Source: a virus (Duplodnaviria; Caudoviricetes). Taken from it: DNA of 64,000 nt. Made by a program: the position numbers and the translations under genes. Numbering within the stretch: the first letter of the stretch is position 1; each line of letters opens with the position of its first letter. Location: positions 208,471 to 272,470 of the IMG/VR virus record IMGVR_UViG_3300038443_002533; one strand, given 5' to 3'. Positions 25,086-38,553 of the stretch are shown here, one piece after another. The notes under the pieces were generated by a model. That model was not told where the DNA came from. It did not search any database and saw only the letters and a program-made list of their open reading frames with translations.

Positions 25086-25473
25086 TTGTCGAGTGTTTAT
25101 GCTTCTATTAGTTTTTTACGGTTGAGTTAGCATACTGTGCAAACTTGGCGTTTGCAGGTTCGACGGTAGCGATCTCACTTATTTGATCGCTTGCGTTGTG
25201 GGGACATATCAGAGCCCCACCTAACCCTATCCCCCTATGCCCTCCGGTGCATGTGTGCAGATGTCTCTACCTATCTTTAGATCTAAGCTTTGGGGGTTTG
25301 GGGGCGACCGGACAGGGAGCCCCTTATAAAAGAGAATTGATAGAACACTAAGCCAGCCTAACAGGGCTGGCGTTATGACGACAAAACCATGTGGAGCTAG
25401 AAATTTTCAAAACCATATAACTAGCGTGAACTGGAATTGGAATGTTCCTATAACCAACAATAAAGGAAAGACC

Positions 25474-25647
25474 ATGTGCAACGAACAACAAGTTAACCAG
25501 GCTGTAACGGTCGAATCTACTCCGGCGATGACGTACCAGTATCGCTGCGGTTACTGTGGCTCGACCGAGCTTCCGATTCCGTACGAGCAAATGTTTGGAC
25601 CCGGTGCTATTGGCTGGGACTGCTGCCCGGATTGTGGTGGCGTTTAA
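25474..25647 (+). CDS. Small zinc-ribbon protein (57 aa)
   Basis: CGYC...CPDC; leader motif. Confidence 0.6.
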   Translation: MCNEQQVNQAVTVESTPAMTYQYRCGYCGSTELPIPYEQMFGPGAIGWDCCPDCGGV

Positions 25648-25669
25648 TAATTAACAACAAGGGATTATC

Positions 25670-25894
25670 ATGTCGACCGCCGTTAGCAAAATTATTCATC
25701 TGTTTAACCATCTGACCGAACAACAGCAGGAAGAACTGAAAACGGATCTGCATTTGATCCAGCAAGTCAGTGCCGCCAGTGATGGTGAGACGCTTTACCA
25801 AGGGGCACCGAAGGCTCACCTTAATGATCGTAGGCGGGCGGCGCTGGCTCTGTCGCGGGTAACTGAACAACTGCTGCATAATCTTTCTCACTAA
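25670..25894 (+). CDS. Hypothetical protein
   Basis: 74 aa; leader motif with RBS. Confidence 0.6.
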   Translation: MSTAVSKIIHLFNHLTEQQQEELKTDLHLIQQVSAASDGETLYQGAPKAHLNDRRRAALALSRVTEQLLHNLSH

Positions 25895-25909
25895 TAACAA
25901 GGGGATATC

Positions 25910-26209
25910 ATGACTTATGCACAATGCACGGTATTGCAAACGCTCAATTACGACGTTGAACGGTTGGATGTAAGCGCTTCGATGTATCGGGCGTTTACCC
26001 TGTACGCGAAAGAAGAAGCGGCGAAAGCCATTCAGCGCTTCCTGGATGCGGAGTCCCGTTATGGTGCTCACTCGCCGGTCGCTACAAAGCTGTTGGGTGA
26101 AGCGATGGAATACCAGACCGCATACATGCGGCTCAATCTTCAGTTCCAAGATAATCTGGACGAATACGAACAAGCGCTCGAAGCACGGATCGCTTACCTT
26201 TACCGCTAA
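25910..26209 (+). CDS. Hypothetical helical protein
   Basis: 99 aa; leader motif with RBS. Confidence 0.6.
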   Translation: MTYAQCTVLQTLNYDVERLDVSASMYRAFTLYAKEEAAKAIQRFLDAESRYGAHSPVATKLLGEAMEYQTAYMRLNLQFQDNLDEYEQALEARIAYLYR

Positions 26210-26222
26210 CCGAGGAGAAACC

Positions 26223-26609
26223 ATGTATCCGCGCCGTAATGAGAAGTACTCGTACGAAGCCATCAGCCAGATGGATCTGCCGGATTCCCCGCACCTGTGC
26301 TTCTGGCACGATGGGATGTGGGTGCCGATTCAGGATAGCTGTGCGACCACGGCCGATACGCTCGGCATCCCGGGCTTTGCTCAAACCGAATGGCGTTATG
26401 GTCATACCACGGATGAGCTGATTCCGATCTTTTACTACGCCAGCGAAACGCCGATCACCGAGTTCGTCACCATCGAACCGATGCTGCATCCGCTCGATGA
26501 TCAGGACAAGTGGTGGGCGACCTTCATTCGCTATCCGCAACCGCAGTTCGGCAGTGAAGCCACCCAGAGTCAAGCGGGCACCATCCACGTCTATCTCGGC
26601 GGGGAATAA
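26223..26609 (+). CDS. Hypothetical protein
   Basis: GAGGAG RBS before ATG 26223; 128 aa. Confidence 0.55.
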   Translation: MYPRRNEKYSYEAISQMDLPDSPHLCFWHDGMWVPIQDSCATTADTLGIPGFAQTEWRYGHTTDELIPIFYYASETPITEFVTIEPMLHPLDDQDKWWATFIRYPQPQFGSEATQSQAGTIHVYLGGE

Positions 26610-26690
26610 AACCCAGAGAGTAATCTCGTAACCTGTTTGATAAGAGCAGGTTATGGGGATGCACTCTCGCATCTTACCTAAGGAGTAATC

Positions 26691-26813
26691 ATGAAACTGT
26701 ATCAACGAATCGCTGCGATCATCTGTTGTTTGGTGCTGTTCGTGTATGGCGTCAGTGAGCTGTACCACACTTTCGCTGACGACGAACCGCAACAATGCGC
26801 ATCGTGCGAGTAA
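26691..26813 (+). CDS. Small single-pass membrane peptide (40 aa, not in ORF track)
   Basis: AAGGAG RBS; MKLYQRIAAIICCLVLFVYGVSELY...CASCE. Confidence 0.55.
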   Translation: MKLYQRIAAIICCLVLFVYGVSELYHTFADDEPQQCASCE

Positions 26814-26814
26814 T

Positions 26815-26850
26815 CTCCTAGCCTGTTCCCCGCGAACAGGTTAGAGGATG
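26815..26850. terminator. Hairpin in accessory block
   Basis: CTCCTAGCCTGTTC-CCCGC-GAACAGGTTAGAGG; no T-tract. Confidence 0.45.
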
Positions 26851-26892
26851 GGCTTGCCATCTCTAATAACTAACAACATGAAAGGATTTACC

Positions 26893-27249
26893 ATGAATTC
26901 CGTTTTGAATGCTTTTAATACGCGTTTCGCTGACATTAACAACGTGCAGCATCGCGCACAACCCGCTACGCGGATCTTCGATATCGTGCATCACGCCGAC
27001 GTCTCGGCGTTGAAGCGTGACCAAGTGCTGGCAGGTAACAGTCTGGAGCGTTATCCGTTCCTGGCGATCAATACCCTGGATGGCGCGTTTGTGATGTACA
27101 ACAACGCCAATGGCGAAATCGTGTACTTCTGCCCGCCGTCGTTCGCGAATCTCGCGACAGTCAAACAGGCAGGCTTCCGTACGTTCGGTACGATCGATAC
27201 GCTGGATATGTTCAACCATATCTTCGCTATCCCGGATTCGTATCTGTGA
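26893..27249 (+). CDS. Hypothetical protein
   Basis: Leader motif with AAAGGA; 118 aa. Confidence 0.6.
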   Translation: MNSVLNAFNTRFADINNVQHRAQPATRIFDIVHHADVSALKRDQVLAGNSLERYPFLAINTLDGAFVMYNNANGEIVYFCPPSFANLATVKQAGFRTFGTIDTLDMFNHIFAIPDSYL

Positions 27250-27260
27250 AAGGATCGACC

Positions 27261-27518
27261 ATGCAATCGCAAGAAATGAAATGGAACGCTGACGATTCCC
27301 TCACGTTGGCGTACTTCCTGTTCGGCGTCGCCCTGCGCGAAGTGGTGATGCTGCTGGCGTTGGGGTTCATGCTGCTGATGGTGCTGTACCATATGTTCCC
27401 GGAAGGTTGGTTCCAAGCCGTGTGCTGGGACCTGCGGGAAGGTCGACGGGCTTACAACGACGTGTTCGGTAAGAAGCTCGCAGACAAAATCAAGATTCAC
27501 ATCGTTCAACTCGACTAG
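27261..27518 (+). CDS. Small membrane protein
   Basis: AAAGGA RBS; hydrophobic stretch LTLAYFLFGVALREVVMLLALGFMLLMVLY. Confidence 0.55.
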   Translation: MQSQEMKWNADDSLTLAYFLFGVALREVVMLLALGFMLLMVLYHMFPEGWFQAVCWDLREGRRAYNDVFGKKLADKIKIHIVQLD

Positions 27519-27527
27519 GAGAAAGTA

Positions 27528-27884
27528 ATGAAAAAGGTTATGTTGGCCCTCCAAGACGGCATCTTCATGACGCTGGGTGTCATGTGGCGCAATCTGTGGT
27601 ATGGGGTCAGTCCGCTGTGGGTGTATGCGTTTATCCCGACGTGGCTGAGTCTCGGTGGCTTGTTCCTGATGGGGCAAGTCCAGCCGCAATACCAGGACAT
27701 GGTTCATCTGGCGTTGCTGAGTACCGGCCTGAGTTGGGCGGGGTGGCTCATGGCCAACGTCTTATGCGCCTCCGTCTCGCGTTACCACTACTTTCTGTGG
27801 GTGATCCACGAGTGCAAAAAATACAACGATCGAGCGGCCCAACCTCCTGCCCCGTTGTGGCTGGAATTGCAACGCATCACGTAA
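27528..27884 (+). CDS. Multi-pass membrane protein
   Basis: AGGAG RBS; two to three hydrophobic Trp-rich segments. Confidence 0.55.
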   Translation: MKKVMLALQDGIFMTLGVMWRNLWYGVSPLWVYAFIPTWLSLGGLFLMGQVQPQYQDMVHLALLSTGLSWAGWLMANVLCASVSRYHYFLWVIHECKKYNDRAAQPPAPLWLELQRIT

Positions 27885-27894
27885 AGGAGTGATC

Positions 27895-28218
27895 ATGCGT
27901 ATCTTCATGTTGTTCCTGCTGTTGCTGTTGGGTCAAGGGAGTTTCGCCGCCCAAGACCAAGCCTTCATGCTGCGCGATTATAAACATCGTGCTTACTACC
28001 CTGCCTACCAAGCCAACAACATGACGCGCCATGCCCTCGGGGGCATGGCGTATGCCATGCGGCATTGTAAAATGGTGGACCGGTTAAGCTTCATCAAGAA
28101 CGAAAAGCTCGCCTACGATTCTAACATCGCTGGCGCGTTTTATTGCGTTCAACCGCGTGGCTTACGGACTTATGCAGTGGTCAAACGTTTTAAGCGACCA
28201 CACCGTAAAACACGATAA
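27895..28218 (+). CDS. Putative exported protein
   Basis: Signal-peptide-like MRIFMLFLLLLLGQGSFAA; AAGGAG RBS; two Cys. Confidence 0.55.
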   Translation: MRIFMLFLLLLLGQGSFAAQDQAFMLRDYKHRAYYPAYQANNMTRHALGGMAYAMRHCKMVDRLSFIKNEKLAYDSNIAGAFYCVQPRGLRTYAVVKRFKRPHRKTR

Positions 28219-28294
28219 GTAAGAAAAATACTGACGTATCACATTGACTGGGTAGACATACCTGGTTGGATAACTAACAACAAAGGATATTTCC

Positions 28295-29599
28295 ATGACT
28301 GCAACTCAAACCCCTTTCACCTTGCAGAACGATTTCTCCAAACTCAAGATGACGGGTGAAGCAGCGACGTTGCCGCTTTACATCGATCTGGCAATCTTCG
28401 ACCTCATGGCCGACGGCCGCAAACGTTCGATCAATGAAGTCGTGAGCGCGCTCGCTGTGCTGGGCTACATGCGTAAGGATGTCAACCGTCGCATGGTGGT
28501 CATGCTCCACAAGAGCAAAACCTTCGTGGAAGCCGCGGGCGGTAAAGGTAAGGTGTTGTACGAAATCAAGAAGGGCGCCACTCGCCCTGACTCATTCGCC
28601 ACTACCAAACCCCAACACGTCGTCAAGGAAAGCGACATCGTGCTGGAACCGCAAGCCCGTCTCATCCCCGTCACGCATCGCAAGCGTCGACACATCGATC
28701 TCCAGGAGTTCACCATGCAACCTCACACCACCCCCTCGCAAACCCCGGCACCGCTGTTCACCACCACCGAACCGGAACCGACGCCGGTCGAATTGGCCCG
28801 CCAAGACGTGGCTGCCGAAATCGCGCGGGTTGAACTGGAAGCGACCCACGTCAACCCGAACGACCCGGTCCGTGTCGGCCTGTGGAAAGTCATGGCCGAT
28901 CACGCCTGGTACAAGTCGACCGACCTCGTGACCCTGTTGGCGGATTTCTACCCGTCCGACATCGTGCGCTATCACCTGCGTCAGATGGTCAAGACCAATA
29001 TGGTGGAGGTCGATGAATCGAGCGCCCAGACGCACAAGTACCGCCTGAACGAAGGTGTGGCGATGCCGGAAGGTTTGGAACCGTACAAACCGAAAGCCTC
29101 GACCACCCCCGCCCCGCAACCGCAACTCCCGCTCAACCAGGAACCCGAGATGAAAACCAATATCGAAATGCCGGCGAAAGCTTACCTGAAGTCCCCGCCA
29201 GCGCCGCTGGCCAGCCCGCTCGAAGAAAAGCCGATGATCGACACCAGCAGCAACCAAGCAGCGGAACCGTTCAACCAGTTCAAGAACCCGGACGAGCCGC
29301 AACAACCGGCAACCACTCTGCTGGATCTGGTTCAAGCGTCGACCAAAGACAAACCGAAGGACGTGCCGCTGGTCGAGGTCGGCGGCATCAACGTTCTGGG
29401 TCAACGCTTCTCCTACCGTGAGGCCCGCGAACTGCTGGCTGAACTGAAGACCGAGGGTTACGGTACTGTCCATGGCGTCGTCGGCCATCGTGCCGGTAAG
29501 CACATCACGGTGCGTTGGTCGGTGACGATCGGTACGGTGCAAGTCACGCCGCACCAAGCCAACGATATCGCACTGTCGTTGATCGACGAACTGGAATAA
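28295..29599 (+). CDS. Multi-domain protein with two winged-helix-like repeats and Pro-rich linkers
   Basis: Repeat 1 AIFDLMADGRKRSINEVV...KVLYEIK; repeat 2 GLWKVMADHAWYKSTDLV...THKYRL. Confidence 0.6.
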   Translation: MTATQTPFTLQNDFSKLKMTGEAATLPLYIDLAIFDLMADGRKRSINEVVSALAVLGYMRKDVNRRMVVMLHKSKTFVEAAGGKGKVLYEIKKGATRPDSFATTKPQHVVKESDIVLEPQARLIPVTHRKRRHIDLQEFTMQPHTTPSQTPAPLFTTTEPEPTPVELARQDVAAEIARVELEATHVNPNDPVRVGLWKVMADHAWYKSTDLVTLLADFYPSDIVRYHLRQMVKTNMVEVDESSAQTHKYRLNEGVAMPEGLEPYKPKASTTPAPQPQLPLNQEPEMKTNIEMPAKAYLKSPPAPLASPLEEKPMIDTSSNQAAEPFNQFKNPDEPQQPATTLLDLVQASTKDKPKDVPLVEVGGINVLGQRFSYREARELLAELKTEGYGTVHGVVGHRAGKHITVRWSVTIGTVQVTPHQANDIALSLIDELE

Positions 29600-29609
29600 T
29601 CCCATCTAT

Positions 29610-29637
29610 CCCTAGGCTCCCTTACGGGGGCTTAGGG
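29610..29637. terminator. Hairpin after 28295-29599
   Basis: CCCTAGGCTCCC-TTAC-GGGGGCTTAGGG. Confidence 0.5.
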
Positions 29638-29713
29638 TGAGAATGGTTTTGAGAGACTGCGGTTTCTCACAAACATTTTCTTGCCTATAACCAACAACAC
29701 AAGGAGCTTTACC

Positions 29714-29866
29714 ATGTACCAAATCAATGAATTCAAAAACAGCACCATCGGCCAAGCCATCGCTACCGAAGCCCGCGATCGTTCGGATCGTAAGATCACC
29801 CTCACCGTCACCGCGATCATCGCCGCACTCGTGATCGTCGCTTTCAAACACGCCATCGGCGGTTAA
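29714..29866 (+). CDS. Small C-terminally anchored membrane peptide (50 aa)
   Basis: Leader motif with AAGGAG; ITLTVTAIIAALVIVAF. Confidence 0.6.
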   Translation: MYQINEFKNSTIGQAIATEARDRSDRKITLTVTAIIAALVIVAFKHAIGG

Positions 29867-29879
29867 TCAAGGAGACGAC

Positions 29880-30098
29880 ATGGCTACCATGGATAACGCA
29901 GAAGTCCTGCTGGCAAAAGCCCAGTTCGCGCAACGTAACATCGCTCTCGTGGCGAATAAATGGGGCGAGGATTCGGAACTGGTCGAGATGGCGAAGGAGC
30001 AGTTCGAGCATTACTTTAATCTCGCATCGGAAGCGTACAACCAAGTCTTGGGTGAAACCATGACCCGGGTGGAACAAATCCTGCAACAACTTCATTAA
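29880..30098 (+). CDS. Hypothetical helical protein
   Basis: AAGGAG RBS; 72 aa. Confidence 0.6.
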   Translation: MATMDNAEVLLAKAQFAQRNIALVANKWGEDSELVEMAKEQFEHYFNLASEAYNQVLGETMTRVEQILQQLH

Positions 30099-30103
30099 GA
30101 GAG

Positions 30104-30147
30104 CATAGAGACAGGGGTTCGTCCCCTGTCTCTGGGCTTTTTTATTT
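30104..30147 (+). terminator. Intrinsic terminator abutting the promoter repeat
   Basis: AGAGACAGGGG-TTCG-TCCCCTGTCTCT, then GGGCTTTTTT. Confidence 0.7.
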
Positions 30148-30162
30148 CACGTCTATATCACT
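30142..30162 (+). promoter_or_regulatory. Putative phage promoter (exact copy of 10069-10089)
   Basis: TTATTTCACGTCTATATCACT. Confidence 0.6.
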
Positions 30163-30176
30163 TAGAGGAAGGCTTT

Positions 30177-30497
30177 ATGAAGAACTCTCCAGCTAACAAA
30201 GAAGGGACGTCGTTTATCGAAACCTTCGTGATCGATCTGGCGCGTGGGATGGTGGGTACCATGGAACTGCTCGTACAAGAATCCCGGGAACGGGAACGTG
30301 CGATTCGTGAACGCAGCCGTCGTCATGCGGTGCGTCTTATCGAACGAGCGATCCGTACCCATCGGCGTATCAGCCGTGACCGGTTGGCCAAGTATGTTCG
30401 TAACGCGCACCTGTCGATCCCAGACTTTGCCGACGAACTCCGGATTCCTCCGACCCAGCTCAAGAAAGCCTTGAAACGCTGGTACCATTTCTTTTAA
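30177..30497 (+). CDS. Small protein with C-terminal HTH-like motif
   Basis: LSIPDFADELRIPPTQLKKAL; Arg-rich middle. Confidence 0.5.
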   Translation: MKNSPANKEGTSFIETFVIDLARGMVGTMELLVQESRERERAIRERSRRHAVRLIERAIRTHRRISRDRLAKYVRNAHLSIPDFADELRIPPTQLKKALKRWYHFF

Positions 30498-30509
30498 CAG
30501 GAGCGCATC

Positions 30510-30788
30510 ATGAATAACCAACAAAAAGCTCAAGCGCACAAACGTCAATACAAAAAGAAAGCTCGGGATAACCGAGCGATGAGTCGCGCTTTGCGGCTGT
30601 TTCCCAGTATGGGTGGCGTGTGTATCGATTTGCCGGTGACCAGTAATACCAATTGGGCTTTGACGGATTTTGGTACAACAGCCACAGACACTGGCGCCGC
30701 AGACCGCATCGTCAAGTCGATGGATGACGTGACGAACGGGCTTTTTAGTCAGCATTTTAACAAACAAAAAGAAGGTCAACATGGCTGA
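30510..30788 (+). CDS. Hypothetical basic protein
   Basis: AGGAG RBS; 92 aa. Confidence 0.55.
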   Translation: MNNQQKAQAHKRQYKKKARDNRAMSRALRLFPSMGGVCIDLPVTSNTNWALTDFGTTATDTGAADRIVKSMDDVTNGLFSQHFNKQKEGQHG

Positions 30789-31002
30789 ACTTTCCGCATT
30801 CGATAAGATGCGAATCAAAGTCGTCGAAGAACGGCTCGGCGTACCGATTACGACATACACTGCCGAAGAATGGTTGAACAAAGCCATCGAATCGGAAGAG
30901 ATTGCCAAAAGCGGCGATCCGCAGATCATTCCGGAATGGTGGTTCCAAGCCAGTCTGGATCAGCAGAAAGCCGCCGAGTTGGCAGAAAAGCTCGCCCAAT
31001 AA
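30781..31002 (+). CDS. Hypothetical protein
   Basis: Overlaps the previous gene; 73 aa. Confidence 0.55.
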   Translation: MAELSAFDKMRIKVVEERLGVPITTYTAEEWLNKAIESEEIAKSGDPQIIPEWWFQASLDQQKAAELAEKLAQ

Positions 31003-31022
31003 CCAACAACAAGGATATCAAC

Positions 31023-31472
31023 ATGGCCACTAAATCTGGCAAAGTGCAATTGAAGGACATCAAGGTCGGCAAAACGTTTTATCTGGTACATGCCGACTTT
31101 CCGATCGTGGGACCCCACATGGTCGGCACCGGGGAAGTGCAGCGGATCAAACAAATCCGTGTGACCAGTCGCCCGTTCTTCCGCCGTCTGTCCGCGACCA
31201 TGGCCTTCAAGTTCGTGGACGCTACGGGTCGGGAAGACTGGCTCAATCTCGACGAGATGGTGCTGAACCATACGGCTGCGGAAATTACCCGGGAAGATGT
31301 CCCGTATTTCACGGTATGGGTCAACCATCGCGCGATGCGTCGCTTCTGGATCGAGTTCGAGCGTCGTCAGCCGACTCCTGCGGAAACGCGACGGGTCCAG
31401 CTGCGTGAGGCGGGACTGCACGCCAATCAACGCAGCGTCGCCCAGACACCGCAATTCCAACCCAACCGATAA
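31023..31472 (+). CDS. Hypothetical protein
   Basis: Leader motif; 149 aa. Confidence 0.6.
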   Translation: MATKSGKVQLKDIKVGKTFYLVHADFPIVGPHMVGTGEVQRIKQIRVTSRPFFRRLSATMAFKFVDATGREDWLNLDEMVLNHTAAEITREDVPYFTVWVNHRAMRRFWIEFERRQPTPAETRRVQLREAGLHANQRSVAQTPQFQPNR

Positions 31473-31493
31473 CCAATAACAAGGGATATCACA

Positions 31494-31904
31494 ATGCGAG
31501 TTCAAATTCAACGTCAACCCAGTGGTGCGACCCAGGTTGTAATTGGTCGCATCGCACTCGACGCTAATACGGCCAAGGTGATCCGACCAGCCCTGCTGCG
31601 CCACATCACTGAACTGTCGGCCGCGATCGAAGCTGCGGCTACCAACTCGGTAGCAGAAGGCCAGCGCGGTCGCACCATCAGGGAACGACGTCGGACGTTC
31701 CGTTTATTGGAACACTTCGATATGGTGGTCGAAGAAGTCAATTCGGTGCAAGCGTGGCTGGGTGTCCAGAGTACCCATCTCACTGACCACGACATCGAAC
31801 TCTTCACAGAAGCCATGCGCTGGTTCCGTAACCAGTGGGCGGAAAAAGACACAGACGAATACGCGGCCGCAGACCGCATCCTCCACCTCCTCGACGCGCT
31901 CTAA
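31494..31904 (+). CDS. Hypothetical helical protein
   Basis: Leader motif; 136 aa. Confidence 0.6.
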   Translation: MRVQIQRQPSGATQVVIGRIALDANTAKVIRPALLRHITELSAAIEAAATNSVAEGQRGRTIRERRRTFRLLEHFDMVVEEVNSVQAWLGVQSTHLTDHDIELFTEAMRWFRNQWAEKDTDEYAAADRILHLLDAL

Positions 31905-31926
31905 CATAACTAACCGGGACATCACC

Positions 31927-32745
31927 ATGAAAAACTTTAATATCCGTGACATCGGCAGCTTCTCGCTCCTCTTCATCAACCTGCTGACGCAGGGTATGCG
32001 GATTCGCGATCTTCGACTCGATCAACTGGAAGACAAGTTGGTCGAGTATTACGAACCTCTGGTCAGCAACAAAGGGCACGCCAAGCATCTCGCGTATATC
32101 GCCTACAACCGTTTCTTGAACGGCAACCTCGACGTCCATCACGCTGGTGTGATCATGGAAGCCCTCAATATCCGCATCGACATCGCTATCTCGCGCCTGG
32201 AAGATGCCGCCCCGAACATCGAGGTCGGGGCACCTTACCCATCTATCTGGGATCAAAAGATCGACGCCCTGGGTCTGCAACCGCGTACGGAGAATGTTCT
32301 GCTCACGGAATCGATCCATGGTCAGCCAGCGAACGGGCTCGACTATGTGGGTCAACTCGTCAGCAAGTCCACCCTAGAGTTGCGGGAATACCCAGGACTG
32401 GGTTCCGCGGGGATACAAGACATCATCTCGCGTCTCGCGGCGGTCGGGCAGAAGCTCAACACCGATACAGGTGGCTGGAAACCCCCTGCCGCTGAATCGA
32501 CGATTGATTATGAACGGTTCTCGTTACCAATCTCGGCGCTGTCCGAACTGGTCGGGTATATCGGCGGTACGCTGAAAAACAACAGCATCGAGTTCATCGG
32601 CGATCTGGTGAGAATGAAACCCGAAGACCTGGACGCCATCCCTGGGATCGGGAAAGTCTCCCAGGAGAAAATCCTCGCCGCACTGAAGAAGCGTGGTCTG
32701 GAACTCGGGATGGATGTCGGTTATTGGAGACCGAACAAAAAATAA
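31927..32745 (+). CDS. Protein with two tandem RNA polymerase alpha-CTD-like domains
   Basis: C-terminal LPISALSELVGYIGGTLKNNSIEFIGDLVRMKPEDLDAIPGIGKVSQEKILAALKKRGLELGMDVGYWRP aligns by eye to RpoA CTD ([29 protein letters not shown]...[31 protein letters not shown]). A more divergent copy precedes it. Confidence 0.85.
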   Translation: MKNFNIRDIGSFSLLFINLLTQGMRIRDLRLDQLEDKLVEYYEPLVSNKGHAKHLAYIAYNRFLNGNLDVHHAGVIMEALNIRIDIAISRLEDAAPNIEVGAPYPSIWDQKIDALGLQPRTENVLLTESIHGQPANGLDYVGQLVSKSTLELREYPGLGSAGIQDIISRLAAVGQKLNTDTGGWKPPAAESTIDYERFSLPISALSELVGYIGGTLKNNSIEFIGDLVRMKPEDLDAIPGIGKVSQEKILAALKKRGLELGMDVGYWRPNKK

Positions 32746-32764
32746 CTTTACTTAAGGAGTGTTT

Positions 32765-32965
32765 ATGTCGCACCTGCAACCGAACTTCATCGCTAAGAAC
32801 AAAGCGCGTATCCGGAATGCCCATGCGCCGCGTTCGATGCCGCGTAGCATGATCAAGAAGGAAGCCGCTCGTTACCCCATGGCTGACTGGGGCGGTATTC
32901 CGGACAACATGTATTACAGCTGGTGCGACGTCATCAACCACCGAATCTTCACACTCCGTAAGTAA
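32765..32965 (+). CDS. Small basic hypothetical protein
   Basis: AAGGAG RBS; 66 aa. Confidence 0.55.
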   Translation: MSHLQPNFIAKNKARIRNAHAPRSMPRSMIKKEAARYPMADWGGIPDNMYYSWCDVINHRIFTLRK

Positions 32966-32967
32966 AA

Positions 32968-33019
32968 GTGTTCTACTATCCGCTTAGCAATAGGCGGTTA
33001 GTGGAAGTGCTTTTCTTTT
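32968..33019 (+). terminator. Imperfect hairpin with T-tract
   Basis: TTCTACTATCCGC...GCGGTTAGTGGAA followed by GTGCTTTTCTTTT. Confidence 0.5.
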
Positions 33020-33031
33020 ACAGGAATAAAA

Positions 33032-33289
33032 ATGACTTTACCTGAACGTATACGCAAAGATCGACCCATGAACCGCGCTCTGGCGGAACGCTTGCGCATG
33101 GTGGATTTTCTTCTGGATCATTTTGGGTTTTTCCAACGTAAACATCTCATGGATTACTTTGGGATCTCGCCCGTACAGGCATCCAATGATCTCAACGAAT
33201 ACCAGCATTTTGCGCCGACGAATATGAGATACGACGTCAGCGCTCGTATGTACCGCAAAACTGAAAATTTCAAACGTTTATTTCCTTAA
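33032..33289 (+). CDS. Stand-alone CapW/BrxR-type N-terminal winged-helix domain (no WYL/WCX)
   Basis: ERLRMVDFLL..FG...RKHLMDYFGISPVQASNDLNEYQHFAPTNMRYDVSARMY....F..LF matches the recalled CapW/BrxR pattern ERL.FIDF.L...G.I.R.DL...FGIS..QAS.DL..Y...AP.NL.YD.S.K.Y.....F.P.F. Confidence 0.8.
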   Translation: MTLPERIRKDRPMNRALAERLRMVDFLLDHFGFFQRKHLMDYFGISPVQASNDLNEYQHFAPTNMRYDVSARMYRKTENFKRLFP

Positions 33290-33294
33290 CAAAA

Positions 33295-33702
33295 ATGACC
33301 ACTGAGACCCAACTCGAACTGCAATTCCTTCCGGAAGATGGCCCGGAGACCTGCCTGTGGAAAGCTATGCATGGACAAGACTGGCTCAGCAGCCCGCAAA
33401 TCATGGCGCGCTTGGAAGAAGCGGGATGCCGCTTTGCCAGGGTGACCATGCGTAACAAACTGGGCAGCTTCTCGCGCGACATCATGGAAACCCGGCCGAT
33501 GCCCAATACTCCCAGCATCTACCGGAGCGCCAAGCAATACCGCTTGATTGCGGGTAAACCCATGCCCGATAATCTCGACCCGAAAGGGCGGGGTCCGCGC
33601 AACACTTCGGAAGACGACAAACGCATCGAACGTCAGAAAGAAAGCATGACGGCGGCGGTGGATCAAATGTCGGCCATGATGATGATGTTCGCTAAACGCT
33701 AA
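33295..33702 (+). CDS. wHTH-like paralogue A
   Basis: LPEDGPETCLWKAMHGQDWLSS, shared with the next gene. Confidence 0.55.
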   Translation: MTTETQLELQFLPEDGPETCLWKAMHGQDWLSSPQIMARLEEAGCRFARVTMRNKLGSFSRDIMETRPMPNTPSIYRSAKQYRLIAGKPMPDNLDPKGRGPRNTSEDDKRIERQKESMTAAVDQMSAMMMMFAKR

Positions 33703-33718
33703 CAATAATAGGGGTGCC

Positions 33719-34120
33719 ATGAACACTTTAATCAGCTTAACCGTGTTGCCGACGGACGGCCCCATCACGTGCTTGTGGAAGTGCATGTATGGGAAAGGCT
33801 GGATGACGGGTGCCGAAGTCGTAGAAGCGGCGCAGAAGACCCATTACGCCCCCATGACGCTATATCGCATCTTGGGCAAGGTCTCACCCGAGCTGATGGA
33901 GCGACGTAAGTCGAAACGCGCCGAGAGCCGTGGTGGGGCTTGTGAGTACCGGGTGGTGGAAACTTCGACCCCACCCACCGAACGCATCCGCGCCACCAAG
34001 CAACAGATAGAAAGCTGCACAGATCGCCGTGCGGTGGCCGAACACGGTGTGCGTCGGCGTGCCAAGCGAGGAGCAGGTGAAGTACAACGTGTCGTGTGGG
34101 CTTCCAAGTACGCGACGTAA
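33719..34120 (+). CDS. wHTH-like paralogue B
   Basis: LPTDGPITCLWKCMYGKGWMTG; basic C-terminus. Confidence 0.55.
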   Translation: MNTLISLTVLPTDGPITCLWKCMYGKGWMTGAEVVEAAQKTHYAPMTLYRILGKVSPELMERRKSKRAESRGGACEYRVVETSTPPTERIRATKQQIESCTDRRAVAEHGVRRRAKRGAGEVQRVVWASKYAT

Positions 34121-34151
34121 TTCATTTATCATAACTAACAAGGAAATCAAA

Positions 34152-34454
34152 ATGATCAAAGCAGTCGAATTCAATGTCAACATGTCCCAGAACAACTTCG
34201 CTGGCCTGATGATGGGTTCCACGGAGTTGCGCGACTTCTTCCTGGCCGCTCTGCACGAGAACAGCACCACGTGGATGGAATTCACCAAACGTCTGGATGA
34301 AATGGTCAAGAGCGAAGAGATCACCACCTTCGACCATGACCAGATCATGGATCACCTCAAGGACAACATGACGAGCCAGTTCATGTCGTGGCAGCACTTC
34401 CAGTACGCCCTGAAAGCCCTCGGCGCCAAATCCATCAAGATCGTCGTCGAGTAA
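34152..34454 (+). CDS. Hypothetical protein, possible remote paralogue of 63040-63687
   Basis: Leader motif; MSWQHFQYALKAL motif. Confidence 0.6.
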   Translation: MIKAVEFNVNMSQNNFAGLMMGSTELRDFFLAALHENSTTWMEFTKRLDEMVKSEEITTFDHDQIMDHLKDNMTSQFMSWQHFQYALKALGAKSIKIVVE

Positions 34455-34464
34455 GGAGAATACC

Positions 34465-35001
34465 ATGGCAGGTAAAAACCGTTACGGAATCACTTTGATC
34501 AGTTTCCTCTTACAAGTCGCTCCACCCCGCACTCCTCTGGATGAGAAAGCGCCGCGGCCGGATTTCTACGGCACGGTGGTGCACAAGGAAACCGGAGAGC
34601 CACGGCGGGTTGGTGTTCATCTCACTCGCGTCAAGCGTGTCGACGTAAGCCATGACGGTTATCATGACCGCAGCCGCCCACTGGAACAAATTCGGTTGGC
34701 TGTAGCCCAGTTGGCTGGCTGGCATCCAGACGAATTGATCTTCGTTCAACATCACGCCGCTTGGGTGGAAGACTCCCTTTGGGCGGTGTTACACCAGTGG
34801 GCGGATGAACACATCTACCTCTTGACGTCGCTCACCGAACAGCGCTATTGGTCGGCGGAGAAAGGGTGGGTTAATGTCGACGAAGCGACCTGGTTTACCC
34901 AACAGGAAATGATGGATCTGGATTTAAAGCAATTCGGTAAAGAGTTGAACGTCACCTGGCGTGAGATGCCTGAACCGGGCTTTCCCAATCCTTACTACTA
35001 A
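34465..35001 (+). CDS. Hypothetical protein
   Basis: AAGGAG RBS; 178 aa; Trp-rich C-terminal domain (YWSAEKGWVNVDEATWF). Confidence 0.6.
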   Translation: MAGKNRYGITLISFLLQVAPPRTPLDEKAPRPDFYGTVVHKETGEPRRVGVHLTRVKRVDVSHDGYHDRSRPLEQIRLAVAQLAGWHPDELIFVQHHAAWVEDSLWAVLHQWADEHIYLLTSLTEQRYWSAEKGWVNVDEATWFTQQEMMDLDLKQFGKELNVTWREMPEPGFPNPYY

Positions 35002-35007
35002 ACCACC

Positions 35008-35352
35008 ATGAAAACCACCCGTTACAACATGGACAAGGTCCAGCAACTGCCGGAGTACAATCCGGCTGACTACCTGAATGACAAGCAAAGCGCGGCGAAT
35101 GTGTTGAACGAGTTATTCATGACGGAAGACTCGGCGCCGACAATCGCGTACATCCTCGGCGAGCTGAGCCGGAAACACGGCATGTCGGAAGTCTCGATCC
35201 ATAGCGGCATCAAGCGTGAATCGCTGTATCACGCCCTGCGCAAAGACCCCAACTCAAAGCCGCGGTTCGATACCATTTTCAAGGTGATCAACGCCTTGGG
35301 TTTCGAACTGATGGTCGTGCCCGTCAACACCACCCCGGTCTCGGGCAAATGA
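35008..35352 (+). CDS. Orphan addiction-module antidote (HI1420-like XRE HTH)
   Basis: YNPADYL...LGELSRKHGMSEVSIHSGIKRESLYHAL....KPRFDTIFKVINALGFEL matches the family pattern (D.ADYL...ARARGM..VA...GL.RE.LY.AL....NP.F.T..KV..ALG..L). Confidence 0.8.
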   Translation: MKTTRYNMDKVQQLPEYNPADYLNDKQSAANVLNELFMTEDSAPTIAYILGELSRKHGMSEVSIHSGIKRESLYHALRKDPNSKPRFDTIFKVINALGFELMVVPVNTTPVSGK

Positions 35353-35359
35353 AGGAGAA

Positions 35360-35731
35360 ATGATGTTTGCAATTGTACTGCGCCTGATCGCTGACGGCGC
35401 CAAGGCCGATCCTGTTCGTAACCTGGATGTTCTGCCCGATGTCAACAAGGCCATGCCGTTGGTGCTGGAAGAAGACAAATGGTACGTCATGAACGTCGGC
35501 GACGCTCCGACAGTGTTCGGTCGCCTCAACCGGGCACAAAACGAACACCGTAATCTGGTCGATGACGTCACCTTCAAGCGTGCCGCTGCGGTCAAACATG
35601 TCCTCGGCGTGATCGCTGACTTCAAGAGCAAATACGGTGGCCGTAATTGCGCCCATCAAGCCTTCATCGAACTGCAAGTCCTGAGTCCGACCAAGGTGGA
35701 TGACTGCGAAATCAATCTGTCTCAGTTCTAA
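35360..35731 (+). CDS. Hypothetical protein
   Basis: AAGGAG RBS; 123 aa. Confidence 0.55.
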   Translation: MMFAIVLRLIADGAKADPVRNLDVLPDVNKAMPLVLEEDKWYVMNVGDAPTVFGRLNRAQNEHRNLVDDVTFKRAAAVKHVLGVIADFKSKYGGRNCAHQAFIELQVLSPTKVDDCEINLSQF

Positions 35732-35797
35732 TCTGTCGGCAGCATAGCACCCCACCCTTCGGGGTAGGTTTATAACCAACAACAAAGGATATCAAAA

Positions 35798-36010
35798 ATG
35801 TTTACACTGAACGAAGAAATCAAAAAACGTATTGATGAGAAGGCAGGTCCGAATTCTCCGGATTTCTGGTCACAATTTCTCCGCGCTCGCGCCTACTTCA
35901 TCGCCTCGTGCCGAGAAGCTGGGCAGACCGATGCGGAGATCTTCGCCTCCCTTTACATGGACGGACCACAACACGTGACGCGCATCCGTCAAGGTCTCAG
36001 TATCGAATAA
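35798..36010 (+). CDS. Hypothetical protein
   Basis: Leader motif; 70 aa. Confidence 0.6.
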   Translation: MFTLNEEIKKRIDEKAGPNSPDFWSQFLRARAYFIASCREAGQTDAEIFASLYMDGPQHVTRIRQGLSIE

Positions 36011-36015
36011 GACAA

Positions 36016-36055
36016 CATAGCACCCTCCCTGCCTTGCGGCGGGGAGGGTGCTATG
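36016..36055. terminator. CATA...TATG-closed hairpin between the convergent accessory and fibre/lysis blocks
   Basis: CATAGCACCCTCCCTGCC-TTGC-GGCGGGGAGGGTGCTATG. Confidence 0.75.
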
Positions 36056-36060
36056 ATCAC

Positions 36061-36780
36061 TTATTTTTTTGCTTCTTTGGAGAGCAACTCGTCTTTGGGC
36101 CAGTACACGAGGAACTTGGCTTGACGTGCTTCCACCCGACCCGGGTACTTACTGTTGATCATGCAGAACGATTCACCGTAGCCCGCGACCTTGACATTGG
36201 CTTGCGGGCATTGCTGATCGAGATGACCGAACCATTGATCGGCTTGACACCCTGGCGTTGTCCGGCACGAACGGATGCGTTTGGTCACACTTCCGAACCC
36301 GCCGTTATACGTGGCCCCATCGCACGCCTTGATGTTACGGTTCCCCGACAGTACCGCCCGACAGTTGCGCTCGTTGACTTTCATCTTGAGCACCAACCCG
36401 CGGAGCTGGTATTGTGCGTTGTAGCAATCGGCCCAGGTCCAACCCTTCAGTGTTGGGTCGAGCCGTTTGGTTTCTTCCAACGCATCAAAGCGCACATTGC
36501 CTTGGGCATCGTACGCTTTAGTGAACTGACCCAGACCACAACCAAACTCGCGTGAGGTCTTCAAGGTAGCTTTGATCTTCCAGTTCGACTCTTGGTCGGG
36601 AATCGCCGCCATCCAACTGCGCGGGGTCAGATCCGGCCAGTAAGTCTCGATCTCGTGATTGAGAATCGGCAGACCACTGGCGGCATCCCCGGGTAGCTTC
36701 TGCGCGAAGGCGCCGGTAACGGCGAGCACGTAGAACAGAAAGAACATCGCCACCCCGACGATGATGTTAGCGACCCGCAT
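36061..36780 (-). CDS. SLT-family lytic transglycosylase with N-terminal membrane/signal segment (endolysin candidate)
   Basis: MRVANIIVGVAMFFLFYVLAVTGAFA leader; catalytic DQESNW, GLGQF, TYNGG motifs; several Cys. Confidence 0.8.
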   Translation of the reverse strand: MRVANIIVGVAMFFLFYVLAVTGAFAQKLPGDAASGLPILNHEIETYWPDLTPRSWMAAIPDQESNWKIKATLKTSREFGCGLGQFTKAYDAQGNVRFDALEETKRLDPTLKGWTWADCYNAQYQLRGLVLKMKVNERNCRAVLSGNRNIKACDGATYNGGFGSVTKRIRSCRTTPGCQADQWFGHLDQQCPQANVKVAGYGESFCMINSKYPGRVEARQAKFLVYWPKDELLSKEAKK

Positions 36781-36782
36781 GG

Positions 36783-37184
36783 TTATTGCGCCAGGTAGAT
36801 CAACACCACCACACGGAACGCCCATTGCACGGTATTGACCGCATGCAGGGCCACCGCCGCACCCGGATGGAAGCGGGCTTCACCCAGCGCATCATTCAAA
36901 CCATGACGGGTATCGACCGTACTGGGTTGCGTCGCGAAACGAATCCAGAACACGCTCATTTCGATGAACGTGAGTTTGGCCGATGCCAGCATCATCGGAA
37001 TGAATTCCGGGAAGCGGTGCACCAGGGCGAAGCGATCGCTCATGCCCGAGTCGACCAAATGGTCCACCAGCGCGAAGCCGAACGATGTCAGCAGAGCCAG
37101 CGCTACGCTGCGCGCGAACATGCGTTGGAACAGATCCCAGCTTTGCTGGGTGAATTCAAACAACTTACGGTGTAGTCGGGACAT
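36783..37184 (-). CDS. Putative holin-like membrane protein
   Basis: AAGGAGG RBS before ATG 37184; about three hydrophobic segments; stop lies 2 nt before the transglycosylase start. Confidence 0.5.
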   Translation of the reverse strand: MSRLHRKLFEFTQQSWDLFQRMFARSVALALLTSFGFALVDHLVDSGMSDRFALVHRFPEFIPMMLASAKLTFIEMSVFWIRFATQPSTVDTRHGLNDALGEARFHPGAAVALHAVNTVQWAFRVVVLIYLAQ

Positions 37185-37395
37185 GAAGTCCTCCTTTGGC
37201 TTTGCGGGCTGCGCTTTGCTCTGGCGTGAGCCACGCACCGCTTAAGGTTTGGAAATAGCCGACGTTGACATCGTCCGGGATTTCTAGATAGTTATCCGCC
37301 TGATCGACACCCACGTGTTCTTCGATGCTGTGGCCTACGGGCAACTCAATGACCGCTACCACCACATTCTTGTACAATCGCCCGTAGCGTACCAT
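37165..37395 (-). CDS. Small fibre-associated protein (76 aa)
   Basis: YGRLYKNVVVAVIE...LEIPDDVNVGY resembles small proteins that usually accompany Gly-rich phage fibre genes. Confidence 0.5.
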   Translation of the reverse strand: MVRYGRLYKNVVVAVIELPVGHSIEEHVGVDQADNYLEIPDDVNVGYFQTLSGAWLTPEQSAARKAKGGLHVPTTP

Positions 37396-37488
37396 GTTAA
37401 TACCTTTGAAGAATGAAGTTGCGAAGGCGTCAACGCCTCCATAACAATGGATGATGTTTTCTTCGCAGCAACATTCTGCTACAAAGGT

Positions 37489-38553
37489 TTAACCCACATC
37501 CGAGGAAACGAGTTTACCGATCCACGTGACACCACCGTCATAGGTAGTGAATTCGTATTCGCTGATCGAGTTAGCCGCAGCCACTCGGGTCGGTACGGTT
37601 TTGTTCGGCCACAGGATCGGCGAGGCGAACGCGATACTACGGTTACCCACTGCATCATTACGAATCAGCACCCCGAACTTGAGGTAATCGTTTCCAGCCA
37701 GACCCGTGATCCCAGTCAGATCGAACTGGAACGTGGTGTTGCTGTTGAGCGCTACCACGAAGCGATTGGCCTGGCTCAAGTTGAACTTGGTGACGGCGCT
37801 GGCCGCGGTCAGCTGTTTAACGATTTCACGGTGGCCGGCTTTGAAGTAGCCATACCCATCCACGGTCAGGCGACCAAACAACTCACCACCGGCTGCATTG
37901 AATGGGGTGTAGCCGAGCGTGTTGACGATGGATTGCGCAGTCGAGCGCGATTGCACCATGGCGTCGATCACCGATTGCATATTCGCCAACTGGCCGTTCA
38001 GGTAATCGTACACACCCTTTTGACCAGCCGCCGAACCGAGCAGCACGCCGTCACGCAGACGATCGATCGCCGCCGACAGGTATTCGAAGCCGTACAGATC
38101 ACCCGCATCGTGCAGGTGCGGGGCCGGTGGGTAACCATCGGGTTTACCGATGATGTTGTCGAATTGGATCGTGCGGCTATCCAGCCCCAGGTCTTTCACC
38201 AGTTGCACAATCGCGTCATAGCTGAAGCTGTATTCGCCGCCCAGCATCTGCGCATCGAGCATGACATTCGCGCCACAGGTCGCGTCGGTGATGACGAGGA
38301 TCTGGTGGATCTCACGGCCAGTCCGTGCAGTCGGATCGGTGTAGAGGATACTCGGGTAGTAATCCACCCCTTTGGTCAAGGTGCGGTTGGTCGCCACATC
38401 ACGCAGGGCGATCGAGTCGGTGAAGAACGCGCCGTAGTTGGGCACGAGGATGCGGATATTCGTACCAGGCAACACATGCAATTCATTCGTCACACGGTTA
38501 CTGACAGCCGCACCCGTCAAATCAAGCGGGTATTTGACTGGAACTAAAGACAT
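37489..38553 (-). CDS. Tail-fibre/adaptor protein, paralogue of 43667-44899
   Basis: N-terminal YPLDLTG..SNRVTNE; central FDNIIGKPDGYPPAPHLH; C-terminal NLSQANRF...WP...P....YDGGVTWIG domain. Confidence 0.7.
   Translation of the reverse strand: MSLVPVKYPLDLTGAAVSNRVTNELHVLPGTNIRILVPNYGAFFTDSIALRDVATNRTLTKGVDYYPSILYTDPTARTGREIHQILVITDATCGANVMLDAQMLGGEYSFSYDAIVQLVKDLGLDSRTIQFDNIIGKPDGYPPAPHLHDAGDLYGFEYLSAAIDRLRDGVLLGSAAGQKGVYDYLNGQLANMQSVIDAMVQSRSTAQSIVNTLGYTPFNAAGGELFGRLTVDGYGYFKAGHREIVKQLTAASAVTKFNLSQANRFVVALNSNTTFQFDLTGITGLAGNDYLKFGVLIRNDAVGNRSIAFASPILWPNKTVPTRVAAANSISEYEFTTYDGGVTWIGKLVSSDVG

Follow-up and report, generated by a model that had tools for sequence, protein, structure and literature searches.

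The C-terminal domain of the alpha subunit of RNA polymerase (alpha-CTD) is the hub that links bacterial promoters and activators to RNA polymerase (RNAP). Here we show that a jumbo phage whose own polymerases use no alpha subunit carries a gene for a protein with two tandem alpha-CTD domains, attached to an N-terminal domain (N-domain) of its own. The window analysed, a 64,000-nucleotide stretch of phage DNA, forms the final 64 kb of a complete 272,470-bp IMG/VR record (IMGVR_UViG_3300038443_002533) with a 127-bp terminal repeat, obtained from a rhizosphere metagenome. The gene lies on the + strand at 31927..32745, stop codon included, and encodes 272 amino acids (protein P0001). Translation of this open reading frame (ORF) gave 272 codons with no internal stop, and its ATG start matched the N-termini of every full-length relative in the family alignment, marking the gene as complete. 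We favour the view, with a probability of about 0.4, that the product is a homodimeric, host-directed DNA-binding protein, which would occupy A/T-rich DNA upstream of promoters and compete there with the alpha-CTDs of the host.

An earlier reading of the same DNA, made from the sequence only, had proposed two alpha-CTD-like domains and suggested a profile search against the RpoA C-terminal family. Both domains were recovered by the Pfam match to that family and by superposition on RpoA, with limits essentially as first drawn. The whole protein matched PF03118 (RNA_pol_A_CTD) above the cut-off over two stretches (E 2.7e-13; 49.9 bits against a gathering cut-off of 23.8). HHH_5 scored only 27.5 bits on the same protein. 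In a profile search at the DNA level, PF03118 gave 29.4 bits for domain 2 and 22.6 bits for domain 1, or 25.9 bits when domain 1 was taken with its neighbours. The PDB sequence matches of the whole protein were essentially all RpoA chains; against E. coli alpha-CTD chains, domain 1 alone gave E 4e-5 (phmmer) and domain 2 gave E ~1e-5. An AlphaFold2 (AF2) model built from 30 sequences had a mean predicted local distance difference test score (pLDDT) of 89.7, with low confidence limited to two linkers and one loop. The top 50 Foldseek matches in the PDB were all RpoA. One of these, 3n4m_C, had a template modelling score (TM) of 0.93, a root-mean-square deviation (rmsd) of 1.1 Å over 73 columns and 36% identity, and isolated E. 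coli alpha-CTD chains superposed at TM 0.82-0.94, rmsd 0.9-1.9 Å and 33-38% identity. The possibility of a generic helix-hairpin-helix fold, raised beforehand, was not borne out, as RNA_pol_A_CTD scored 22 bits over HHH_5 and the top structural matches were all RpoA. By profile and model, the predicted fold of both domains is specifically that of alpha-CTD, a compact helical domain with a non-standard helix-hairpin-helix.

Domain 1 (D1; residues 107-188; 32245..32490, + strand) shows the highest conservation within the protein and was delimited by Pfam, the DNA profile, phmmer, the model, Foldseek and the family alignment. Domain 2 (D2; residues 199-272; 32521..32742, + strand) was delimited by Pfam, the DNA profile, alignment and Foldseek; its isoelectric point (pI) is 9.05 and its tail resembles the proteobacterial GL.LGM...W.P. 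The two domains show a mutual identity of only 31%, and they are about 35% identical to any RpoA alpha-CTD. A recent capture from a host rpoA gene was therefore deemed unlikely. Compared with the RpoA domain of known structure (1COO, 1LB2, 3K4G, 3N4M and 3N97), the phage protein likewise matches PF03118 above threshold, twice over, superposes correspondingly and has a flexible linker in front of the domain, as alpha does. It differs in carrying two CTDs in tandem and in having no alpha N-terminal domain (alpha-NTD), the part of alpha that dimerises and brings beta and beta' together: neither PF01000 (RNA_pol_A_bac) nor PF01193 (RNA_pol_L) was found in the 272-residue protein by Pfam. It therefore cannot join RNAP in the way that alpha does.

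A sequence search of 1.84 billion representatives returned 180 matches at E<=1e-3. About 13 representatives possess the N-domain: two CTDs are present in five long forms, one in several short forms (168-184 aa) and three in a single form. The remaining matches are unrelated proteins made of 2-9 alpha-CTD repeats, or fusions. Full-length relatives are 29-40% identical to the protein studied here. Identity to the closest one, P0002, is 56% in D1, 41% in D2 and 27% in the N-domain. Since the short members of the family have only the N-domain and the first alpha-CTD, these two parts constitute the functional core. In related, uncultured jumbo phages (genomes of 52 to 269 kb), the four relatives on contigs long enough to judge occupied one syntenic position, with small + strand genes upstream, including a Phage_g100-like gene of about 148 aa, and the same reverse-strand structural block downstream.

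A pattern scan of IMG/VR with P0002 found one contig (226 kb), and scans with P0001 and P0032 gave no match. A word-based homologue search returned only the protein itself. Among the cultured phages of INPHARED there was no match, either by tblastn with the protein or by megablast with 10 kb of DNA. A relaxed INPHARED search with the two CTDs (E<=1) recovered nothing but rpoA genes; the five records concerned, most of them mislabelled, were bacterial or fragments, and were rejected. PHROGs holds no family that matches the 272-aa protein. Free alpha-CTD proteins as such are annotated in uncultured phages (UniProt A0A6J5L490 and A0A6J5QDR9, 'RNA polymerase, alpha subunit, C-terminal'), and they occur in ESM Atlas clusters whose make-up is half viral. 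These proteins, among them the multi-repeat metagenomic P0005-P0013, have alpha-CTD without alpha-NTD, as does the present one, and are often arranged in tandem or joined to a further module for DNA binding or oligomerisation. In contrast, the protein described here has its own N-domain, seen in only about 13 representatives, and on contigs of sufficient length its relatives share one syntenic locus in chimallin-type jumbo phages. Searches of the literature on alpha-CTD in jumbo phages, on RNA_pol_A_CTD with phage and on PF03118 found no functional study of free alpha-CTD phage proteins. The N-domain family, the layout of a dimer of tandem CTDs, the restriction to a chimallin-type jumbo-phage clade and the evolutionary rate of the gene are new.

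In E. coli, three surfaces of alpha-CTD are distinguished: the 265 determinant for UP-element DNA binding (R265, N268, C269, G296, K298 and S299), the 287 determinant that contacts CRP (T285, E286, V287, E288, R317 and L318) and the 261 determinant that contacts region 4 of sigma70 (D258, D259 and E261). D1 had been read as keeping the equivalents of R265 and N268 and losing the GKKS motif, and this pattern held. In the alignment preferred here, R120, N123 and G159 correspond to R265, N268 and G296, while C269 is replaced by V, K297 by S, K298 by A and S299 by G. This mapping was taken from the family alignment and the model, not from phmmer, and requires an 8-residue loop insertion after helix 1. 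The inserted loop covers residues 127-139 (32305..32343, + strand; motif TES.HG....G.D) at the place of residues 271-276 of E. coli alpha-CTD, as seen from the family alignment and the low pLDDT at 131-133. It is common to the two closest long relatives and is 54% identical to that of P0002. The ungapped phmmer alignment of D1, which would put E and H at the positions of R265 and N268, was rejected, since relatives free of the insertion match the E. coli spacing directly. It also conflicts with the model, in which helix 1 spans 119-127 and begins at P119-R120, followed by the low-confidence loop at 131-133.

D2 aligned without ambiguity to E. coli residues 256-323. It had been read as the reverse case, without R265 and N268 but with G-K-x-S and the GL.LGM...W.P tail, and the alignment agreed: G296, K297 and S299 are kept, while R265 is replaced by Y211, N268 by G214 and K298 by V, so that the 265 determinant is not preserved in D2. 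The 287 determinant is absent from both domains. T285, E286, V287 and E288 are replaced by K/P/E/D in D2 and correspond to S/T/L/E in D1; R317 and L318 are replaced by D/V in D2 and by D/T in D1. The 261 determinant is likewise missing, its positions reading S/A/E in D2 and D/A/G in D1. These positions vary across the family. In the first CTD of the 13 representatives, by comparison, R265 was present in 12, N268 in 11, G296 in all 13 and a serine or threonine at 299 in 8; K298 was found in one of the 13. The G-Y-x-G-G motif of D2 is conserved in the closest relatives. Since the first CTD keeps its DNA-reading residues while the 287 and 261 surfaces vary, we favour DNA binding, possibly with competition for UP elements, over titration of activators.

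The N-domain (residues 1-95; 31927..32211, + strand), a part on which the sequence-only reading had said nothing, was modelled by AF2 with a pLDDT of 88 as four helices (12-26, 31-45, 49-64 and 70-79) followed by a segment at 81-92. A flexible linker (residues 96-106; 32212..32244, + strand), placed by its low pLDDT (51 at 91-100), ends at the start of the family motif YP.IWD, in which P105, W108 and D109 are invariant or nearly so. Pfam gave no match for the N-domain, and its family profile found nothing meaningful, and no helix-turn-helix (HTH), in the PDB. Structural comparison with VIA-align gave Z 6.4 to 6u0i_A (the HTH of HicB3), 5.7 to 5k98_B (HipB) and 5.7 to 2o38_B (XRE). Foldseek returned XRE-type matches with E-values of 0.65 or worse, the BFVD neighbours were XRE and HipB-like phage proteins, and the ESM Atlas gave HTH_3 clusters at TM 0.47-0.53. 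The neighbours are thus uniformly of Xre, HipB or HicB-HTH type in four libraries, with scores (Z 5-6.4, TM ~0.5) that lie within the chance range for helical matches. The resemblance of the modelled N-domain to Xre/HipB HTH domains is weak.

When two copies of the N-domain were predicted together, the interface score ipSAE was 0.47, and none of 3 controls exceeded 0.00. In a benchmark, 20 of 30 proteins solved as one-chain pairs and 1 of 23 solved single chains reached this level; these counts are approximate here, as our own alignment was supplied for the prediction. Contacts agreed to at least 96% between runs and the partner pLDDT was at least 82. The contacts of lowest error joined 82-91 of one chain to 82-91 of the other, in a symmetric antiparallel pairing of residues 81-92 (32167..32202, + strand) packed on helix 1, and this predicted intermolecular strand forms the core of the interface. 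In the HipB/Xre repressors (5K98, 4YG1, 2O38 and the C-terminal domain of 6U0I) four helices are likewise followed by a strand, and in HipB an antiparallel pair of intermolecular strands holds the dimer, as is predicted for the N-domain. There is no sequence similarity between them, and no HipA-like partner was found for the phage protein. Since HipB-type dimers have already been solved, the score may partly mirror likeness to known structures. The architecture suggested by these models is likely a dimer that bears four alpha-CTD-like modules on flexible linkers.

The phage itself was placed by tblastn with phiKZ proteins, which found homologues of gp54 chimallin (5e-12), gp55 (8e-72), gp68 (6e-19), gp71 (3e-40), gp73 (2e-48), gp74 (6e-85) and gp80 (4e-61). 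Products gp55, gp68, gp71-73 and gp74 belong to the non-virion RNAP (nvRNAP) and gp80 is a subunit of the virion RNAP (vRNAP); the gp55 homologue immediately follows that of chimallin gp54. The chimallin, nvRNAP and gp80 homologues lie outside the window at genome C1:61088-87819, in phiKZ order, and gp71 and gp73 both map to a single 735-aa ORF (C1:75731-77938). On these homologies the phage is classed as a phiKZ-like, Chimalliviridae-type, nucleus-forming jumbo phage. The RNAP beta-like subunit is closest to those of Burkholderia phage FLC9 (41.5%) and of Ralstonia phages RP31, RP12 and RSF1. That the polymerases of this phage lack alpha, as the sequence-only reading had held, agrees with the phiKZ-type chimallin and split RNAP genes and with a search of the complete 272-kb genome, in which neither PF01193 nor PF01000 gave a match at E<=1 and the controls were detected in 14 of 14 cases. 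Jumbo-phage RNAPs in general have no homologues of alpha, sigma or omega, and the bacterial subunits are not stably bound to them (2026 review, PMC13282480). PF03118 had no match in FLC9, RP12 or phiKZ, and RSF1 gave a sub-threshold match only. The alpha-CTD gene is therefore accessory and not part of a conserved transcription apparatus.

The gene has also diverged much faster than the polymerase. Between the present phage and the one with P0002, identity is 88% for the RNAP beta-like subunit but only 38% for the alpha-CTD protein. Among 221 shared ORF pairs, with a median identity of 75%, the alpha-CTD gene had the ninth lowest identity, and it was the most diverged of the 20 genes in its own block. 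The gene is thus kept yet fast-changing, which is typical of host-interaction genes.

From these results we propose the following working model. The protein would belong to an accessory, fast-evolving gene block of a phiKZ-like jumbo phage. Its HipB/Xre-like helical N-domain would pair two chains through the intermolecular strand, and flexible linkers would suspend two alpha-CTD-fold domains from each chain, a layout of dimerisation domain, linker and CTD that would resemble bacterial alpha but be built on an unrelated N-domain. D1 would be the reader of a narrow A/T-rich minor groove, because it retains the Arg/Asn/Gly set that alpha-CTD uses on UP elements. D2, because this set is lost, would play an auxiliary part, in contacting proteins or binding the backbone. 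Placed on A/T-rich DNA upstream of host promoters, the dimer would compete with the alpha-CTDs of the host polymerase and damp strong, UP-dependent promoters. A host-directed competitor is favoured for three reasons: alpha has no part in the phage polymerases, the gene belongs to the accessory set, and its evolution resembles that of genes for host interaction. Phages do attack the interaction of alpha-CTD with UP elements: Alt and ModA of phage T4 ADP-ribosylate R265 of alpha. The process targeted would be the same here, namely the contact of alpha-CTD with UP elements at strong host promoters, but T4 modifies the host domain enzymatically, whereas the present protein has no enzyme domain and would act by competition.

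Several points weigh against this model. DNA binding is deduced indirectly, from residues and family conservation. D1 is acidic (pI 5.1), although E. coli alpha-CTD is acidic too, and it has lost both K298 and S299, two residues with a part in UP binding in E. coli. An identity of about 35% to any RpoA alpha-CTD means that neither domain is a close copy of the host domain. The N-domains of the 13 family members gave no match to HTH families in sequence profiles at E<=1 (0 of 13), and the modelled helices are longer than those of canonical Xre domains (about 15 residues against 8-10). Homodimerisation through a HipB-like intermolecular strand is a prediction. Fast evolution of the gene could equally be explained by weak constraint. 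The protein may be located in the cytoplasm, together with host DNA, or in the phage nucleus. To our knowledge, phiKZ-type phages need no shut-off of host RNAP in order to transcribe.

The residue pattern also bears on a protein decoy. A decoy for host activators, NusA or UP elements was among the roles put forward in the sequence-only reading; in the form considered here, free alpha-CTD-like domains would titrate host proteins whose usual docking site is alpha-CTD (class I activators, region 4 of sigma, NusA, Spx-like factors) or enzymes that modify alpha-CTD. The fold is specifically that of alpha-CTD, rapid evolution would suit an arms race between proteins, and D2, which has lost the DNA-reading residues yet is kept with its G-Y-x-G-G motif in the closest relatives, suggests a role other than DNA binding. 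However, D2 has not preserved the known contact surfaces (K/P/E/D; D/V), the contact positions of D1 vary freely across the family where the DNA-reading residues are conserved, and about 35% identity is low for a mimic of a host surface. We therefore regard a decoy as unlikely. The Xre-like likeness of the N-domain suggests, in turn, a regulator that acts locally as a repressor or in the manner of an antitoxin: a dimer of HipB/Xre type would autoregulate its own block or neutralise a partner, with the alpha-CTDs adding non-specific DNA affinity. The nearest folds of the N-domain are indeed HipB, the HTH domain of HicB3 and C-proteins, and the block contains an HI1420-type antidote gene (35008-35352) and other small putative regulators. 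Against this, the N-domain has no HTH sequence signature, no toxin-like neighbour was found, and conservation is concentrated in the alpha-CTD and not in the N-domain, which makes such a regulator improbable.

The protein could, on the other hand, serve the phage itself, as a transcription factor whose dimer would be imported into the phage nucleus and bind phage DNA, either as a temporal regulator or as an alpha-like reader of upstream elements for the alpha-less polymerase. In its order of dimerisation domain, linker and CTD the protein is reminiscent of the alpha subunit, the phage polymerases have no alpha (by our genome search and PMC13282480), the gene's place in the genome is constant within a clade of related jumbo phages, and an Xre-like domain would fit binding to an operator. 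Yet FLC9, RP12, RSF1 and phiKZ have homologous polymerases and no over-threshold PF03118, divergence of the gene (38% identity) far outpaces that of the RNAP subunits (88%), and the number of alpha-CTD modules ranges from 1 to 3 among the relatives. A scan of the genome for A/T-rich islands, 28 of which were found, gave no informative UP-like pattern at phage gene starts. A phage-directed factor of this kind is also unlikely in our judgement. The first two of these objections make a tethered alpha-CTD pair for a phage RNAP, as the sequence-only reading had alternatively proposed, less likely. A particular form of it, in which the dimer would dock on or beside the alpha-less phage RNAP as a trans-acting substitute for alpha and supply UP-element-like reading inside the phage nucleus, we hold to be very improbable; if true, a non-canonical viral multisubunit RNAP would for the first time be seen to have taken on an alpha-CTD function. 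A parallel is offered by phiKZ gp68, a sigma-like fifth subunit of nvRNAP which supplies promoter recognition to a polymerase without alpha and sigma (PMC13282480). It too is a phage-specific accessory, and the present genome has a gp68 homologue. However, gp68 is unrelated in fold and is conserved here and in phiKZ, whereas the alpha-CTD protein has no over-threshold PF03118 counterpart in phiKZ, RP12, FLC9 or RSF1.

The gene provides a well-defined case: a chimallin-type jumbo phage, known from its complete genome and independent of alpha, keeps, across its clade, a fast-evolving, predicted-dimeric protein in which the DNA-reading residues of alpha-CTD are intact. If competition with host alpha-CTDs at UP elements is true, it would represent a new, non-enzymatic shut-down of strong host promoters and would offer a rare way into the question of how host transcription is handled by phages that form a nucleus. 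If the protein instead serves the phage polymerase, the view that these RNAPs work without an alpha-like function would change. The protein is small, soluble-looking and easily tested.

The alpha-CTD gene begins 22 bases past the stop codon of the upstream gene and is preceded by a weak GGGA ribosome site. Directly after that stop, at 31906..31926 (+ strand), lies what reads as a degenerate copy of a genome-wide leader motif (ATAACTAAC...GGGA...), which contains the weak Shine-Dalgarno sequence. The motif proper is ATAAC[CT]AACAACAA followed by (A)GGATATC and, 9-14 bases on, by ATG. The + strand of the 272-kb genome carries 40 copies of it and the - strand 3, with an ATG at most 15 bases downstream at 33 of the 40 + strand sites. 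Within the window the sites are at 28270, 29687, 30999, 31469, 34131, 35772, 25450-26866 and 13068, and about 27 more lie elsewhere in the genome. From its sequence and placement the motif looks like a promoter, or a leader with a ribosome site, common to one temporal class of genes.

Contigs from a root metatranscriptome library, 90-99% alike to the window, covered 29 of the 30 bins of 27000-38000, the alpha-CTD gene included, and no insertion or deletion was listed within the gene. This degree of identity and coverage means that a close strain of the phage is present in the plant-root samples of this second study. Contigs of an RNA library are not proof that the gene is transcribed, as carry-over of DNA is possible. 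Two of the metatranscriptome contigs lack stretches of 167 and 431 bases (29390-29558 and 32878-33310), and this points to strain-level differences in gene content, including an 85-aa gene at 33032-33289.

Among ten neighbouring genes, searched against PHROGs, nine had no match. The tenth, the conserved upstream neighbour at 31023-31472 (+ strand, 149 aa), weakly matched phrog_2978, a family of unknown function (E 4e-5), and in Pfam weakly matched Phage_g100 (E 4.6e-5, below the cut-off). In four relatives (L006, L009, L019 and L023) a gene of 142-148 aa precedes the alpha-CTD gene, either directly or with one gene in between; its homology to 31023-31472 was confirmed by tblastn for L006 and L019 only. 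Downstream, the gene at 35008-35352 (+ strand, 114 aa) encodes an HI1420-type 'addiction module antidote' (PF21716, E 7e-21) with no recognisable toxin partner adjoining it; judged from this family match, it may be an orphan antitoxin against a host toxin-antitoxin defence. Relatives carry the HI1420-type gene beside a GIY-YIG endonuclease. The adjacent genes at 33295-33702 and 33719-34120 (+ strand), each of about 134 aa, share the N-terminal motif LP.DGP.TCLWK. Both map to one gene of a related phage contig (L019, 9711-10028), and by their sequences they look like paralogues.

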